Shown here: one piece after another, positions 1 through 5,453 of the stretch | How the letters are laid out: the number at the start of each line of letters is the position of its first letter | Position numbering within the stretch: position 1 is the stretch's first letter | Virus record (IMG/VR): IMGVR_UViG_3300045988_005327 | Strand: one strand, 5' to 3' | Source: a virus | DNA length: 5,453 nt | Program-made: the position numbers and the translations under genes | The notes under the pieces: model-generated | What the model saw: the letters and a program-made list of their open reading frames with translations, nothing else | The model's database searches: none | Told to the model about the DNA's origin: nothing

Positions 1-141
1 ACCAAAGTGTCAAAATAATCCTTTGGCTTTGCTCATCTTCTTAGACATGGACGCTTCTTTGTCTTTTAACTGTTCTGCGTATGGTTTATCGGTTTCCGCG
101 TTTCTTTCGATTAAGGACGCTATAGCTTTTTCTTGTCGATA
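1..141. repeat. Terminal redundancy (left copy), identical to 5313-5453; signature of a circular contig
   Basis: Base-by-base comparison shows 1-141 equals 5313-5453 with no mismatch. Confidence 0.97.
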
Positions 142-1029
142 CTTCTTGATTCTCCATGCCTTTTCTGGATTTTCTGCTTCGAGTTTTCGCCAATAGTACT
201 CCGGTATTGCTGCGTGTCTGCCGTTGGTGAGCTGTATGTATCCTTGCTGCCAGAGTCGTTCTTGGTTGTCTTCAAACCACTTGTCGCCGAGTCCCGGCTT
301 GCGGCTCATGGTGCAAAATGGTGGTGTTAAACCCATTTTTTGGTAACGCTTTTTGTCGTTTCCGTACAGCTTTTTGGTTACATACCCTGCAACATAATTA
401 TATGTCTCTTGTGTTGCTTGTGCGATGTCAACTGTGCCTTGTCCCCAGATTTTTACCAGTTTATCGCTTGTGTAGTGACCGTGTCTTGATAATTTGTGGA
501 TTGGTTTTAAGTCGTTCGGATGCCATCCATATAGTATCATGTGATAGTGCGGTCTCGCTGTGTTGTCTCCGTACTCTCCCGCCAAAAAGTATCTCAGAGG
601 CTCTTTGACGGCCTTTCTGAGCCTTTTTATAAATAGTTGGGTATCCTCTACACTTAGAGTTTGCGCTGTTCTTGGACGCTCTGAGACGCCTTTCCAGATG
701 TTTATGCCACCTTTATAGATTTCTCCTGTCTCTGTGTCCTGTGTTGGCACATGGTCATCATCGTAAGTTAGTGTAATAAACCAGATGGTTTCTTTGTTGT
801 GTCCATATGCTTCCAGTTCCATCCGTGTGCTCCAGTCCTTACGCTTGCGTAGTCTGCATCCGGTGCATTGTCCGCATGGTATCAACATTACATTTTTCCT
901 GTACATTAGGTCTTCGTACCTAAGGTTTGTCTTATGCATCTTATTAAAAGAGGCGAGTGAGTACACTCGCCCGCTCGCCTCTCTGTTGTGAGGTACATAA
1001 AACCGGATTAACGGTTTATTGCATCCCAT
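10..1029 (-). CDS. VP4: VP4 rolling-circle replication initiator (HUH endonuclease, phiX174 gpA-like)
   Basis: 339-aa ORF. RCR motif 1 is FITLTY (res 84-89). The HUH motif is HYH within PHYHMILYG (res 160-168). The two-tyrosine motif YVAGYVTKK (res 212-220) parallels phiX174 gpA YVAKYVNK. A cysteine cluster CGQCTGC lies at res 52-58. SD GAGG sits 7 nt upstream of the ATG. The ATG at 1029-1027 directly abuts the VP2 stop (TAAATG). Confidence 0.93.
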   Translation of the reverse strand: MGCNKPLIRFYVPHNREASGRVYSLASFNKMHKTNLRYEDLMYRKNVMLIPCGQCTGCRLRKRKDWSTRMELEAYGHNKETIWFITLTYDDDHVPTQDTETGEIYKGGINIWKGVSERPRTAQTLSVEDTQLFIKRLRKAVKEPLRYFLAGEYGDNTARPHYHMILYGWHPNDLKPIHKLSRHGHYTSDKLVKIWGQGTVDIAQATQETYNYVAGYVTKKLYGNDKKRYQKMGLTPPFCTMSRKPGLGDKWFEDNQERLWQQGYIQLTNGRHAAIPEYYWRKLEAENPEKAWRIKKYRQEKAIASLIERNAETDKPYAEQLKDKEASMSKKMSKAKGLF

Positions 1030-1908: not shown

Positions 1909-1940
1909 AAAAATAGACCCGGGGATTTGCCCCGGGCCTT
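1909..1940 (-). terminator. GC-rich hairpin plus U-tract between VP1 and VP2 (probable leaky intrinsic terminator / attenuator)
   Basis: The minus strand reads TAA AAAGAAAGGGGGGAAGG CCCGGGG CAAAT CCCCGGG TCTATTTTT ATG. The perfect 7-bp G/C stem pairs 1918-1924 with 1930-1936 around a 5-nt loop. It extends to about 10 bp with one G-U pair. TCTATTTTT follows, running straight into the VP2 ATG. Confidence 0.6.
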
Positions 1941-1953
1941 CCCCCCTTTCTTT

Positions 1954-3630
1954 TTAGTGATGATCGACGAGTCCCGGAATACTGTACATGGGCATCGGTC
2001 TGACGCTGGTGTTGTCGATGATTGTGTCCATGATAAATTGCGGTTCGTTGTCTACTGCTAAAGTACGCTGAATCTCGGAGTCTCCTTCTTTCATCCATGC
2101 TTGACTCAGGTTTGGTACACTGGTGTAGTTGTCGCCATAGTGCCAACTGTCCAAAGTTCCGGTTGCGTTACTCCTGAATTTTCCGCTGATGCGATTTGGT
2201 TTCATTCTGTATTCTGCCCAAGCTTCCTGATAGCCAAATGCCTGCTCATCCGTTGCGGTGCCGGTCAGATAGATTTCCTTTTTTAGGATTGCTTGTTCTC
2301 CTAAGTTTGCAAAGACAGGATAGTAGAAGTCGAGATTTGTTTTACGGCTCCACATTTTTTCGAGTCCTTGCTGGTAGGTATGATCATGTCGGATGCAACA
2401 TACGCCGATAACATAGCCGTGTTCTTCGAAACTCTTTGTAAACATGTTGCCGTTGTACGGCGTTACGGATACTGCCGCCGTGTTGCCCTGCGGACTTTCG
2501 GTGGTTGTGCCGCTGGTCTGGATAACTTGATTCATGTTGATGGTGATACGTGTACCGCCCAGATACTCTGGGATTTGTACCGTTTTGTCGCTGATTTTGG
2601 TGTGAAACAGCGAATAGATCATCTCACGGTAACGACTGCCGCCGCGTGCAAGCTCTTCATAGTATTTTTGAACTTGGAAAGCCTGTCTCAGTTGGTTAAT
2701 CGTTGCTCCTTCTATGGAGGTTAAGTCTGCACCAAGGTAGGCTGTTTTGTCCCCTGAGTTCTGATAGATGCCTGTTCCATACGGTACGATTGTGCTTCCG
2801 GGCTTTATTCCCCCTGTGGTTCCCGTCCAGTTGACATATTTGTCTTCACTGACTGTTTTCAAGGTTTCTTCTTTGTACGGAAGGATTCTTGCATTTCCAG
2901 TCAGCGGAATTGTAATAGTTTCTGCTGACTTCTGAGGCGATGGCAACGCTGACGTAAAGTAGTCATGGAATTTGTTTACTGGTAATGGCCTTGAGCCTCT
3001 GAATGCGTTTTTTAGGATATATTCGATGTCCGGTTTGTTTCCGTCCATCCCGAATTCCGGATTGTCGTAGTACGAATGTGTCACGTCTCCGTCTTCGGTG
3101 ATCGCTGGATTGTCTACGTTTTGGTCTCTGAACCATTCTTGCCAAATCATTACGTATGCTCTGATTGGCAGTGCGTTTATTGTAAACGCTGTTTCTTTGT
3201 TTTTGCATACCTTGGTTGGTATGCCCATATAGTCCAATATACTTCCTTCAAAAGGTTCTGCTACAGGTCCTTCTGATGTTTTTTCGATTTTTATTTGCGG
3301 AATTGTGTATTCTTGCTTTTGTGTCCACGGCCCAGTGTCGTTTTCTCCCATAAACCGTTTCCAGTTTTTCCAGAGGATTCGGTTTGGTGCGAAGAAATAA
3401 TAGATGTCCATATAACAATTGTCCATTACGGGGAAGATTGGCGTTGTCATACGGATAATTGCGGCCTGATCGATTGAAAAGGTGTCTCCTGGTAAGACCT
3501 CATCTACGTAGAATGGTATGAGCTGTCCTGCGTTGAGTGTGAGCTTGACGTCTTGTCTCCGCTTGAACCGACTTCGTGTGATGTCCAGTCTTGGGACTTG
3601 GTTGAATCCTGCGTCTTTGTTTCTGTTCAT
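1954..3630 (-). CDS. VP1: VP1 major capsid protein (Microviridae F-protein family)
   Basis: 558-aa ORF. The N-terminal region (FNQVPRLDITRSRF...LNAGQLIPFYVDEVLPGDTF...TTPIFPVMDNCYMDIYYFFAPNRILWKNWKRFMGEN) matches the conserved gokushovirus VP1 pattern. SD GGAGG lies 7 nt upstream. The start overlaps the VP3 stop as ATGA. Confidence 0.95.
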   Translation of the reverse strand: MNRNKDAGFNQVPRLDITRSRFKRRQDVKLTLNAGQLIPFYVDEVLPGDTFSIDQAAIIRMTTPIFPVMDNCYMDIYYFFAPNRILWKNWKRFMGENDTGPWTQKQEYTIPQIKIEKTSEGPVAEPFEGSILDYMGIPTKVCKNKETAFTINALPIRAYVMIWQEWFRDQNVDNPAITEDGDVTHSYYDNPEFGMDGNKPDIEYILKNAFRGSRPLPVNKFHDYFTSALPSPQKSAETITIPLTGNARILPYKEETLKTVSEDKYVNWTGTTGGIKPGSTIVPYGTGIYQNSGDKTAYLGADLTSIEGATINQLRQAFQVQKYYEELARGGSRYREMIYSLFHTKISDKTVQIPEYLGGTRITINMNQVIQTSGTTTESPQGNTAAVSVTPYNGNMFTKSFEEHGYVIGVCCIRHDHTYQQGLEKMWSRKTNLDFYYPVFANLGEQAILKKEIYLTGTATDEQAFGYQEAWAEYRMKPNRISGKFRSNATGTLDSWHYGDNYTSVPNLSQAWMKEGDSEIQRTLAVDNEPQFIMDTIIDNTSVRPMPMYSIPGLVDHH

Positions 3631-4124
3631 TCTTTGGCCTCCGTTGCTTCGGTTGCTTCGGTTGCTTTCGTCGTCTCAGTTTTGTTTTCTGTGTAGATTC
3701 CCAGATTCTTTGCCCATTCGATTGTGCCATACGATGCAACAAACTTATCGACATCGTTGTCAAATTTGAGCTTGATGTCTTTTGGCACTTCTTCCCAGAT
3801 CTGTTCTGCTCTCAGCATGATGTTCTGGAGTTCTGCCAGCGTCTGCGGTGCTTCGGTAAAGTCTTGGATGCCGCCGCCGATGTCCGGCTGGATACGTGCT
3901 GCAATGTTTGGGTCGATGCTTGCTCGCCGAATGATGTTTTCCAGTTTGGTTTCCTCAAGATAGGAGTCGATTTCTGCTTGCTGATCAATGGTCTGGTCGA
4001 GTCTTAGCACCTTTTCGCCTTTTTCGTTGCGTTCCCAGAGGTATGTGCGCCTTACGCTTTCTCCGGCCTCGGTCGGTTTTGCCGTTGCTGTCTCCCTGAA
4101 GTTACTTACAGAGCGAAATGCCAT
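3627..4124 (-). CDS. VP3: VP3 internal scaffolding protein
   Basis: 165-aa acidic ORF directly upstream of VP1. The core DFTEAPQTLAELQNIMLRAEQIWEEVPKDIKLKFDNDVDKFVAS resembles the conserved gokushovirus VP3 scaffold core. SD AAGGAG lies upstream. The C-terminal tail is a TEA repeat. Confidence 0.82.
   Translation of the reverse strand: MAFRSVSNFRETATAKPTEAGESVRRTYLWERNEKGEKVLRLDQTIDQQAEIDSYLEETKLENIIRRASIDPNIAARIQPDIGGGIQDFTEAPQTLAELQNIMLRAEQIWEEVPKDIKLKFDNDVDKFVASYGTIEWAKNLGIYTENKTETTKATEATEATEAKE
3643..3669. repeat. About 3 copies of a 9-nt tandem repeat (GTTGCTTCG) inside the VP3 3' end
   Basis: 3643-3651 and 3652-3660 are identical; 3661-3669 (GTTGCTTTC) is a degenerate third copy. On the coding strand it is in frame and encodes ATEATEATEA. 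Confidence 0.9.
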
Positions 4125-4341
4125 CGTAAATGTTCTCCTTTGCCTCTTCGAAGTTGCCGTCGCGTTCGTCGAATTTTGCGAGTCTTACCAACCTGTAGTC
4201 GCTTGGCGTCTTGCTCATGATGTTGTTTTCGTCCATTAGTGCGATTTTGAAGTTTCGCTCGGCCACCTTGTCGTCTCGCTCACTAAAGGTGGTTACATAG
4301 CTCATTGCACACTGATCATAGATGCCGTATACGTTGATCAC
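4102..4341 (-). CDS. VP5: VP5-like small non-structural protein (gokushovirus ORF5 family), GTG start
   Basis: 79-aa ORF. The pattern VYGIYDQCAMSYVTTF...DKVAERNF...PSDYRLVRLAKFDERDGNF resembles my recollection of the Chlamydia-phage/gokushovirus ORF5 signature (V.D.K...F..PFF....A.R.F.......P.D..L...G.FD...G.F). SD GAGGAGG lies 9 nt upstream of the GTG at 4341-4339. The 3' end overlaps the VP3 start by 23 nt. Confidence 0.65.
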   Translation of the reverse strand: MINVYGIYDQCAMSYVTTFSERDDKVAERNFKIALMDENNIMSKTPSDYRLVRLAKFDERDGNFEEAKENIYDGISLCK

Positions 4342-4662: not shown

Positions 4663-4684
4663 TTGGTTACTCCTTGGTTACTCT
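4663..4684. repeat. Two tandem copies of an 11-mer (TTGGTTACTCC / TTGGTTACTCT)
   Basis: The two 11-mers match at 10 of 11 positions; 4663-4672 equals 4674-4683 exactly. On the coding strand this reads GAGTAACCAAG GAGTAACCAAA followed by ATG. Confidence 0.9.
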
Positions 4685-4791
4685 TCGGGCTTGTTGCCCT
4701 CTACTGCGTGGTAAATTTTGTCCAACATGGACAAGATTTTGCGGATGTTGTTAAACAGCGCGTTAATTTCCTTGAGAGTCAGAGCAAACAC
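4678..4791 (-). CDS. Possible short leader ORF (34-37 codons) with a non-canonical start
   Basis: The frame is open from the TAG at 4797-4795 to the TAA at 4680-4678 and reads (V)FALTLKEINALFNNIRKILSMLDKIYHAVEGNKPEE. A strong SD AGGAGG lies at 4796-4791. The only start-like codons are GTG (4791-4789, fused to the SD) and CTG (4782-4780, 8-nt spacer). The first ATG (4728-4726) has no SD. Confidence 0.3.
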   Translation of the reverse strand: MFALTLKEINALFNNIRKILSMLDKIYHAVEGNKPEE

Positions 4792-4858
4792 CTCCTAAAA
4801 ATTATTTTGTATAAATGGTTTTGCAAAAATAGCACTTTTGTGCTGTTTAACTATTTTC

Positions 4859-4887
4859 TTTATACCAAAAAAAATAGGATTCGTCAA
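4859..4887 (-). promoter_or_regulatory. Sigma70-type promoter driving the minus-strand gene block
   Basis: The minus strand reads TTGACG (4887-4882), then a 17-nt spacer, then TATAAA (4864-4859). A TG lies one base upstream of the -10 hexamer (TGGTATAAA, extended -10). It sits about 60 nt upstream of the first SD. Confidence 0.65.
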
Positions 4888-5029
4888 GAGGTTTTTGACA
4901 CTTTTTATTTGAGGTCATGCGCTAGGCGCGGTGTGCCGTACGAAGAGCATGACGTGACTTTCTGGTTTCGCTCGTCGGACGGCTTTTAATTTCGTTTTCC
5001 ACAGTTTCAACAGGTTTTCCACAAAATGT

Positions 5030-5049
5030 TGCACAAAGGTTTTTGTGCA
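5030..5049. other. Hairpin-forming inverted repeat TGCACAAA-ggtt-TTTGTGCA inside the iteron array
   Basis: 5030-5037 is the reverse complement of 5042-5049, giving an 8-bp stem and a 4-nt loop. The left arm overlaps the DnaA-box-like 9-mer TGTTGCACA. Confidence 0.8.
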
Positions 5050-5071
5050 TATTGCTACACTTTCAACATTT

Positions 5072-5081
5072 CAACAAGTTA
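5072..5081 (+). repeat. Copy 1 of the exact 10-mer CAACAAGTTA (TAACTTGTTG on the coding strand)
   Basis: Identical to 5181-5190. It bridges an iteron and the perfect DnaA box. Confidence 0.9.
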
Positions 5082-5087
5082 TCCACA
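5079..5087 (+). promoter_or_regulatory. Perfect consensus DnaA box TTATCCACA
   Basis: Exact match to the bacterial DnaA-box 9-mer consensus. Two one-mismatch copies (TTTTCCACA) lie at 4995-5003 and 5015-5023 in the same orientation. Confidence 0.6.
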
Positions 5088-5180
5088 AAAGTATCAACAT
5101 TAAAATTAGCTAAAAAATATCGTTCCAAGGATAAAAATTCATAGTATTTAACATTTTAACACTCCCTACTACTACGACTA

Positions 5181-5190
5181 CAACAAGTTA
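5181..5190 (+). repeat. Copy 2 of the exact 10-mer CAACAAGTTA, followed by a very AT-rich tract
   Basis: Identical to 5072-5081. The context is CAACAAGTTAATAATAAAAATGATAATAAT. Confidence 0.9.
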
Positions 5191-5212
5191 ATAATAAAAA
5201 TGATAATAATAT

Positions 5213-5252
5213 CATGCGCGTGTGCGCGCGATTACGTGTGCGCGCGTGCATG
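5213..5252. repeat. Two 18-nt perfectly alternating pyrimidine-purine GC-rich blocks around an ATTA centre, containing a 12-nt direct repeat
   Basis: The blocks are CATGCGCGTGTGCGCGCG (5213-5230) and CGTGTGCGCGCGTGCATG (5235-5252). CGTGTGCGCGCG occurs at 5219-5230 and 5235-5246. The blocks are imperfectly inverse-complementary: 13 Watson-Crick pairs, and the 5 exceptions are all G-T. Confidence 0.9.
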
Positions 5253-5257
5253 TCATT

Positions 5258-5309
5258 ATAAAATAAAATACTCAGCCAAGTACCTTACTTGATAGTTACT
5301 TGGCTGAGT
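5258..5309 (-). terminator. Rho-independent terminator downstream of VP4 (across the circular junction)
   Basis: A perfect 13-bp stem pairs ACTCAGCCAAGTA (5270-5282) with 5297-5309 around a 14-nt loop. On the minus strand it is followed by ATTTTATTTTAT. The stem begins 12 nt after the VP4 stop, counting across the 1/5312 join. Confidence 0.8.
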
Positions 5310-5312
5310 GAC

Positions 5313-5453
5313 ACCAAAGTGTCAAAATAATCCTTTGGCTTTGCTCATCTTCTTAGACATGGACGCTTCTTTGTCTTTTAACTGTTCTGCGTATGGTTTA
5401 TCGGTTTCCGCGTTTCTTTCGATTAAGGACGCTATAGCTTTTTCTTGTCGATA
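5313..5453. repeat. Terminal redundancy (right copy); repeats the 3' end of VP4 (5322-5453) and is not a second gene
   Basis: Exact copy of 1-141. Confidence 0.97.

Follow-up and report, generated by a model that had tools for sequence, protein, structure and literature searches.

Results

Location and structure of the GC dyad

The window analysed here is a stretch of viral DNA of 5,453 nt (IMG/VR record IMGVR_UViG_3300045988_005327), taken at its full length, and the element under study is a dyad of two GC-rich blocks of alternating pyrimidines and purines (Y-R), called the GC dyad or, in its folded form, the GC hairpin. The window comprises the complete circular genome of a gokushovirus of 5,312 nt with an assembly overlap of 141 nt (1-141 = 5313-5453). 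The nearest public relatives, ~82-86% identical, come from faeces of humans, monkeys and pigs and are uncultured gut gokushoviruses. All genes are carried by the minus strand of the window, which makes the + strand antisense to every gene. The sole long non-coding region, 4663-5321, extends from the Rep stop codon (5322-5324) to the first gene of the next round (4662), and with the genome closed to a circle of 5,312 nt and the 141-nt overlap counted once, this single region of 659 nt holds the GC dyad. In the clade of the window the elements of the region follow each other in the order DnaA boxes, TAC-repeat tract, a motif ACAACAAG, ~25 nt of AT-rich DNA, GC dyad, a 17-nt AT spacer, a second hairpin named hairpin B, and the Rep stop codon (Table 1).

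The sequence-only reading of the window had described two blocks of 18 nt with perfect Y-R alternation separated by ATTA, which could be confirmed to the base. Direct reading also bears out that the arms pair antiparallel at all 18 positions, with 13 Watson-Crick and 5 G-T pairs. The second Y-R run is longer than arm 2 and covers 21 nt (5233-5253). The longest Y-R run in 2000 shuffles had a mean of 12.5 and a maximum of 22 nt; one long run can be chance, and the reality of the GC dyad rests on its conservation. The 12-mer CGTGTGCGCGCG, taken earlier as a direct repeat, is indeed present at 5219-5230 and 5235-5246, but it is a by-product of low complexity and is not conserved in relatives. Folding energies, compared with those of shuffled sequences, favour the + strand. 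As single-stranded DNA (ssDNA), 5213-5252 folds with −15.8 kcal/mol on the + strand (z −2.0; 6 of 200 shuffles equal it) and with −9.6 kcal/mol on the minus strand (z +0.5, no better than shuffles); with RNA parameters the values for 5205-5262 are −35.7 (z −4.5) and −19.0 (z −1.4), respectively. Read on the gene-sense strand, the five G-T pairs of the window turn into C-A mismatches. The sequence-only reading had not mentioned that the strand which pairs is the one antisense to the genes, and this is the most informative feature of the element.

Table 1 Features of the window and their coordinates
Feature	Position	Strand	Remarks
AT-rich left flank TTAATAATAAAAATGATAATAATAT	5187-5212		Last bases give the stem ~5 extra weak pairs
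GC hairpin, arm 1 CATGCGCGTGTGCGCGCG	5213-5230	+	18 nt of perfect Y-R alternation; alignment columns 7-24, paired with 29-46
GC hairpin, loop ATTA	5231-5234	+	In 32/33 close-family versions; CTT, TTT, CTAT, CTA or TT in distant relatives
GC hairpin, arm 2 CGTGTGCGCGCGTGCATG	5235-5252	+	18 nt of perfect Y-R alternation
AT-rich spacer, GC hairpin to nick-motif hairpin	5253-5269		
Hairpin B	Stems 5270-5282 and 5297-5309	+	Covarying stem, loop CCTTACTTGATAGT
CTTG-ATA in loop of hairpin B	5288-5294	+	Presumed Rep nick between G5291 and A5292
Small hairpin C, GACAC-CAAA-GTGTC	5310-5323		Overlaps Rep stop codon
Rep/VP4	1029..10	minus	Pfam
Capsid VP1	3630..1954	minus	Pfam
Scaffold VP3	4124..3627	minus	Pfam
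VP5	4341..4102	minus	Pfam

Conservation and covariation of the dyad

Relatives were collected as the non-coding regions of GenBank relatives together with 80 IMG/VR loci fetched via the adjacent Rep gene. A dyad of two GC-rich Y-R runs is found at the same place downstream of Rep in 75 of the 91 related loci, in 53 distinct versions, while the remaining loci end right after Rep; the conservation in related microviruses that the sequence-only reading had named as a check is therefore present. Even a sub-clade with only 55% Rep identity keeps the dyad, with arms of 20-25 nt and CTT, TTT, CTAT or a similar loop. Each arm alternates perfectly over 18-25 nt in every one of the 53 versions, which differ by transitions only, and the alternation is always interrupted at the centre of the dyad.

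Covariation was analysed in the 33 distinct gapless versions of the family with ATTA loop, i.e. 18 pairs in 33 versions or 594 stem cells. Every one of the 594 cells forms a standard pair on the + strand of the window, and no transversion occurs across the 36 stem columns. Ten of the 18 pairs changed on both sides, in 64 cells compared with 18 ± 6 in shuffles, a value that none of 500 shuffles attained. With the register slid by ±2, pairing falls to 87% and no more than 3-4 pairs covary. Since the purines of the + strand are almost all G, any even register pairs a pyrimidine with G, and the informative positions are the A residues. In the true register we counted 453 Watson-Crick and 141 G-T pairs, no A-C and no other combination, and all 65 A-containing pairs are A-T, whereas in registers shifted by ±2 or ±4 an A stands opposite C ~80% of the time. 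All 53 cores taken together give 781 Watson-Crick, 213 G-T, 9 A-C and 1 other. On the gene-sense strand C-A mismatches occupy 24% of the stem positions. The wobble rule, according to which A requires T while T is accepted opposite G, is that of a single strand folding on the + strand of the window. Because the element pairs, covaries and obeys this rule on the + strand only, the GC dyad is a strand-specific single-strand hairpin. A possible iteron was rejected: although both arms share a consensus 18-mer, the individual genomes keep no direct register (in relatives the longest k-mer common to both arms varies between 6 and 23 and is not bound to one register), and the variation is antiparallel.

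The terminator-like hairpin between VP1 and VP2 served as an internal control. Its wobbles lie on the coding strand, with 7 G-U against 1 A-C, and because this mRNA hairpin shows the opposite wobble asymmetry, the covariation method tells the two strands apart. The VP1-VP2 intergenic hairpin itself (1909-1953, minus strand) is followed by a T-run, is kept in relatives and fits a real transcription attenuator or terminator.

This comparison bears directly on the idea that the GC dyad could act on the gene-sense transcript downstream of Rep, as a second terminator or as a hairpin that stabilises the mRNA. Such a function would suit a GC-rich dyad that has, on the minus strand, a T-rich tract after it. 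However, a sense-strand stem with C-A mismatches at nearly a quarter of its positions, which folds no better than shuffles, is not what the true mRNA-level hairpin of the same genomes looks like, and the terminator scan makes no call at the dyad. The strand asymmetry refutes the sense-strand terminator, to which we assign almost no probability.

A hairpin in RNA of + sense, either an antisense transcript or a primer-like RNA directed towards the 3' end of Rep, has to be weighed differently, as the wobble rule suits RNA as well as ssDNA and the RNA fold on the + strand is far more stable than that of shuffles (−35.7 kcal/mol, z −4.5). The + strand has one promoter-like match, at 5188-5215. This match is within chance expectation (1 found, 2.1 expected), the start would fall inside arm 1, and a scan for promoters and terminators gave nothing above chance at the dyad. 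Moreover, the + strand has no U-tract after the hairpin, the hairpin matches no Rfam family, and an RNA function leaves unexplained why the element is co-oriented with a nick-motif loop, i.e. a DNA signal, and restricted to genomes with an inverted origin (see below). We thus regard an RNA-level role as rather improbable.

A Z-DNA or cruciform switch that responds to supercoiling of the replicative form had also been offered by the sequence-only reading. In such a switch the two alternating blocks would turn left-handed, or extrude with the aid of the AT-rich flanks, which could tune superhelical stress and thereby affect opening of the AT-rich DNA nearby or exposure of the Rep nick loop. Rep proteins of the phiX174 type require negative supercoiling, and the dyad is set in very AT-rich DNA beside the nick hairpin. 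Its runs of 18 and 21 nt exceed the alternating tract of ≥12 bp rich in CG and TG steps expected of Z-prone sequence, and resemble in this respect the (CG)n/(TG)n tracts that form Z-DNA in supercoiled plasmids. The unbroken alternation of both arms in 53 of 53 versions with transitions only, together with the fact that hairpin B tolerates transversion compensations, argues that alternation in the dyad is kept in its own right. Z-DNA is nevertheless strand-symmetric, so that TG and CA should occur equally, while 141-213 G-T pairs stand against 0-9 A-C. It has no need for register-specific A-T compensation and offers no reason why the alternation is always broken at the centre; in contrast to the plasmid tracts, the conservation of the dyad is strand-asymmetric and register-specific. 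Z-DNA alone therefore fails on the strand asymmetry (141 G-T against 0 A-C), but alternation is conserved beyond the need of a hairpin, and some property related to Z-DNA or dependent on alternation may be involved. The cruciform fares worse, because it needs both hairpins, and on the minus strand only 76% of the positions can pair, the other 24% being C-A mismatches, and the fold (−9.6 kcal/mol, z +0.5) does not exceed that of shuffles. As the principal function of the dyad, a supercoiling-dependent switch appears unlikely.

A site for site-specific recombination was a further suggestion, either dif-like for XerC/XerD or an attP for integration into the host chromosome. Some enterobacterial gokushoviruses integrate at dif, and the element is a dyad in a non-coding region. 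Yet a search with the E. coli dif core and XerD arm, the only type of consensus tried, gave no dif-like match at ≤3 mismatches. A scan of 185,579 species genomes with the ATTA-type core returned, among the matches listed (≥120), only chance matches in GC-rich coding sequence, which lack the extended arms, have no phage genes nearby and include no prophage, integrated or oriC-like copies. Finally, the arms are free to vary in sequence provided that they still pair, the opposite of a core recognised by a protein. We consider a recombination site extremely unlikely, and this suggestion is largely abandoned.

Hairpin B and the presumed Rep origin

Hairpin B starts 17 nt downstream of the GC dyad on the same (+) strand. 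Its loop holds ACTTGATA, which matches the nick core of phiX174, where the origin core is CAACTTG-ATA with the nick between G and A. The dyad ends 39 nt 5' of the CTTG-ATA motif on the + strand; among relatives the distance is most often 39-42 nt and spans 18-161 nt. The loop sequence ACTTGATAG is invariant in 78 loci, and two relatives (L087 and L088) present the loop CTTGATAG on a wholly different stem. The stem covaries, transversion-type compensations included, with 16 G-T against 0 A-C wobbles on the + strand in the genuine versions. Hairpin B is antisense to Rep in every related locus, including 68 of 68 untruncated loci of the clade of the window, where matches on the coding strand are weak AT-rich pseudo-stems only. 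On the minus strand, a terminator-like structure that follows Rep also uses hairpin B as its hairpin.

Chp2 (L094, ~2905-2950, loop TCTACTTGAT) and phiMH2K (L092, ~3297-3335, loop ...CCCTACTTGTTGTAA) have a hairpin of this kind as well, in both cases on the coding strand. In 80 diverse gokushoviruses found via Rep alignment, we searched for a stem of ≥8 pairs with ACTTG[AT] or CTTGAT in the loop, and such a hairpin lies on the coding strand in 64-71 genomes and antisense in a few, against 1-2 for control motifs. Across the Gokushovirinae (L215-L369 included) there is a hairpin whose loop contains (N)TACTTGAT, usually with GTGAC after it, and the GTGAC after hairpin B is likewise widely conserved. 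The hairpin with the TACTTGAT loop is a pan-gokushovirus element and very probably the origin used by Rep; conservation across gokushoviruses and the likeness to phiX174 point to CTTG-ATA as the putative nick site. SpV4 was considered as a further reference for polarity and set aside as uninformative, since its CTTGATA copies sit in coding sequence and have no hairpin. As candidate cleavage sequences of Rep/VP4 we note CCTTACTTGATAGT on the + strand and TTAACTTGTTGTAG on the gene-sense strand.

The dyad and origin inversion in other gokushoviruses

Co-occurrence was surveyed in 155 genomes outside the clade of the window. The origin hairpin lies on the coding strand only in 99 genomes and was undetected in 43, and none of these has a GC dyad or two or more perfect DnaA boxes; the same is true of the single genome with the hairpin on both strands (L224, 8.8 kb). 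Among the 12 genomes with an antisense origin hairpin, six have a GC dyad (seven with a shorter one in L296) and six have ≥2 perfect DnaA boxes. GC dyads are thus restricted to genomes with inverted origin, 6 of 12 compared with 0 of 142 with coding-strand or undetected hairpin, where the counts include related genomes and correspond to about three or four independent lineages, not 80. In 78 other gokushoviruses whose origin hairpin was undetected or lies on the coding strand, no Y-R run exceeds 14 nt. Wherever a dyad occurs, its T-bearing strand is also the one with the origin hairpin.

The genomes L217 and L218 are as far from the window as other gokushoviruses (Rep 35%, VP1 39%). In the group to which they belong (L217 3040-3170, L218 2975-3100, L295-L298), a hairpin of ~70 nt lies just after VP1 and folds on the antisense strand. 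Its apex is an alternating GC dyad and its base an inverted pair of DnaA boxes (TTATCCACA/TGTGGGTAA), with the wobbles on the antisense strand. These genomes have 2-5 perfect DnaA boxes compared with 0-1 in the 142 genomes with coding-strand or undetected origin. L355 is a further lineage, with a Rep 49% identical to that of L217 and no perfect DnaA box; its dyad folds with −40.6 on the antisense strand and −20.5 on the coding strand.

Such a distribution can also be understood if the dyad is an accessory element of the viral-strand origin, helping Rep to recognise the regenerated origin or to terminate there, or keeping the region open. Dyad and nick-motif hairpin always lie on one strand, as a rule with 39-42 nt between dyad and nick; no genome without an inverted origin has a dyad, and the dyad follows the orientation of Rep and hairpin B, not that of the DnaA module. 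On the other hand, 99 gokushoviruses with an origin hairpin on the coding strand do without a dyad, the spacing is variable with insertions in between, and in the L217 lineage the dyad lies 1.3 kb off, in another intergenic region and with DnaA boxes at its flanks. An accessory role at the Rep origin is conceivable, though in our view not probable.

The DnaA module and its surroundings

Upstream of the dyad, a cassette of DnaA boxes, DnaA-trio and AT-rich DNA occupies 4994-5212, and its geometry could be confirmed. The conserved motif ACAACAAG, with its G at 5187, and a TAC-repeat or DnaA-trio-like tract precede the left flank; the dyad follows ACAACAAG most often after 22-23 nt (range 8-131 nt). 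In the clade of the window the DnaA-box module lies ~125 nt from the dyad in the same non-coding region. In two relatives (L074 and L085) the cassette, with its DnaA boxes, its TAC repeats and ACAACAAG, is inverted as a whole and the strand of the dyad relative to Rep is unchanged. A coupling of the dyad to the strand of the DnaA-trio tract was therefore rejected, and because the cassette is inverted relative to dyad and Rep, it behaves as an orientation-independent double-strand module. Insertions separate cassette and dyad in L002, L070 and L089.

Further hairpins were noticed in the region. Extra GC-rich perfect palindromes lie between ACAACAAG, dyad and hairpin B in L002, L067, L070, L087 and L089, for example AAGGGGTTGACTT-T-AAGTCAACCCCTT and CCCCTTAGCCCTC...GAGGGCTAAGGGG. 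The non-coding region varies in length because of these inserted palindromes, which could be mobile hairpins or additional single-strand signals. In the window (5031-5050 and 5041-5090), the + strand ssDNA hairpin TGCACAAAGGTTTTTGTGCA is predicted to be stable. A duplex DnaA box on ssDNA could also form there if the perfect box at 5079-5087 paired with the imperfect, inverted one at 5043-5051.

Discussion

The observed core of our interpretation is that the GC hairpin always shares its strand with the nick-motif hairpin. We propose that the GC dyad is a strand-specific ssDNA hairpin that acts as an initiation signal on the + strand displaced by rolling-circle replication, a proposal to which we give an even chance. 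Rep would nick the + strand, which would then be displaced by rolling-circle replication and probably packaged. Lying just 5' of the nick, the GC hairpin would be displaced last, and it could then serve as, or nucleate, the signal at which host enzymes begin complementary-strand synthesis. C-to-T changes on the functional strand would be tolerated since G-T still pairs, and the TG steps of the stem may exist for this reason. Inversion of the origin would leave the old signal on the wrong strand, so that a new and simple (CG)n-derived hairpin would have arisen in these lineages. The sequence-only reading had suggested a structural origin or a hairpin recognised by primase; what stands of it is a conserved, covarying single-strand hairpin inside the region of the replication origin, and the role in initiation stays conjectural. 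All functional statements made here are drawn from comparative sequence analysis.

Three features of a single-strand origin (sso) or single-strand initiation (ssi) signal were found. Pairing on the presumably displaced strand is under selection (594/594 cells, 10/18 pairs covarying), it is strand-specific (141 G-T against 0 A-C on the + strand), and the dyad lies upstream of the presumed nick, with dyad and nick motif on one strand in all lineages. In the f1 intergenic region and in plasmid pairs of sso and double-strand origin, the single-strand signal likewise sits directly 5' of the nick and on the nicked strand, and in position and logic the dyad appears to match the f1 minus-strand origin and the sso of plasmids. 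Like the sso of rolling-circle plasmids (ssoA, ssoU, ssoT, ssoW) and the minus-strand origin of f1/M13, the dyad is a long imperfect hairpin in one orientation on the presumably displaced strand, placed just 5' of the presumed Rep nick, where it would be exposed last, and it is non-coding and free in sequence while pairing is kept. It differs from them in that there is no sequence similarity and in that its stem is strictly alternating CG/TG. Of the ssoA motifs RSB and CS-6, the latter (consensus TAGCGT/A) was looked for by direct reading of 5186-5330, where neither TAGCGT nor TAGCGA occurs.

The A-site of the ABC primosome offers a second comparison. Its description is said to go back to Masai et al. 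1990 and to Masai and Arai 1995. In the A-site, the stem of an ssDNA hairpin contains a DnaA box, and helicase and primase are loaded there on ssDNA in a DnaA-dependent manner (PMC6127211). In the L217 lineage the GC dyad caps the ~70-nt hairpin with the inverted pair of DnaA boxes at the base, which would present a duplex DnaA box on ssDNA, and this hairpin looks like a natural signal of the A-site or ABC-primosome type in a phage. The dyad stem of the window has no DnaA box, unlike the hairpin of the L217 lineage.

Within the microviruses themselves, the n'/PriA site of phiX174 and the complementary-strand origin hairpins of G4 start complementary-strand synthesis on the packaged strand. They are intergenic hairpins, as is the dyad, but they lie on the gene-sense packaged strand and are not made of alternating GC, while the dyad lies on the antisense strand.

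Several observations weigh against an initiation signal. Cultured Microviridae package the coding strand, and if the same holds here, the + strand would be single-stranded only in cruciforms or transcription bubbles. Base composition is uninformative on strand polarity. The coding strand has 47% A, 24% C, 19% G and 9% T at four-fold degenerate sites, but this extreme skew of A over T is confined to coding regions and absent from the non-coding region; we rejected it as a proxy for the packaged strand, as phiMH2K, with its origin hairpin on the coding strand, has a similarly A-rich coding strand. A second ACTTG motif, TAACTTGTTG, lies on the coding strand (reverse complement of 5181-5190) and is like the loop core of phiMH2K. 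It has a 10-nt match, ACTTGTTGTA, to the loop of the phiMH2K origin hairpin, and its surroundings are AT-rich with no real stem. The motif might be another site for Rep or belong to the DnaA-trio tract, and the gene-sense strand may also, or instead, be nicked there. The spacing between dyad and nick is variable (18-161 nt), and in the L217 lineage the dyad is 1.3 kb from the origin hairpin in another intergenic region. Four or five genomes with antisense origin have no dyad. The GC hairpin has no sequence similarity to any known sso or ssi, and its best E-values in Rfam were 0.4-0.8. Finally, a plain hairpin needs no Y-R alternation, yet no transversion occurs in the stem while hairpin B shows transversion-type compensations. 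The alternation is a constraint of its own, and it may stem from slippage of (CG)n dinucleotides, from an unusual conformation of the stem or from a secondary Z-DNA role in the replicative form.

If the + strand is indeed the displaced and packaged strand, the clade of the window and at least two distant lineages, the L217 group and L355, would be negative-sense microviruses that package the non-coding strand, and the GC hairpin, together with DnaA boxes in two of them, would be a newly evolved complementary-strand origin. The dyad would then be found only in genomes with inverted origin because a strand-specific initiation signal was needed anew after the inversion. We hold this extension tentatively, as a possibility falling somewhat short of an even chance.

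In the literature that we searched, no description was found of the GC dyad, of DnaA boxes in gokushoviruses, of an origin hairpin or its orientation, or of Z-DNA in ssDNA phages. Papers on microviruses go no further than noting that intergenic hairpins may prime the complementary strand (PMC9865509). The present comparison provides a testable origin map for a large uncultured clade, consisting of the nick-motif hairpin, the strand-specific GC hairpin and the DnaA module. Gokushoviruses are among the most abundant phages of the mammalian gut. The pan-gokushovirus hairpin with the TACTTGAT loop is usable to orient any microvirus genome. Under our interpretation, the packaged strand of some lineages is predicted to be the one antisense to the genes. 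If this is true, the rule that Microviridae are positive-sense would need revision, and the GC hairpin would be a replication signal that evolved anew after inversion of the origin.

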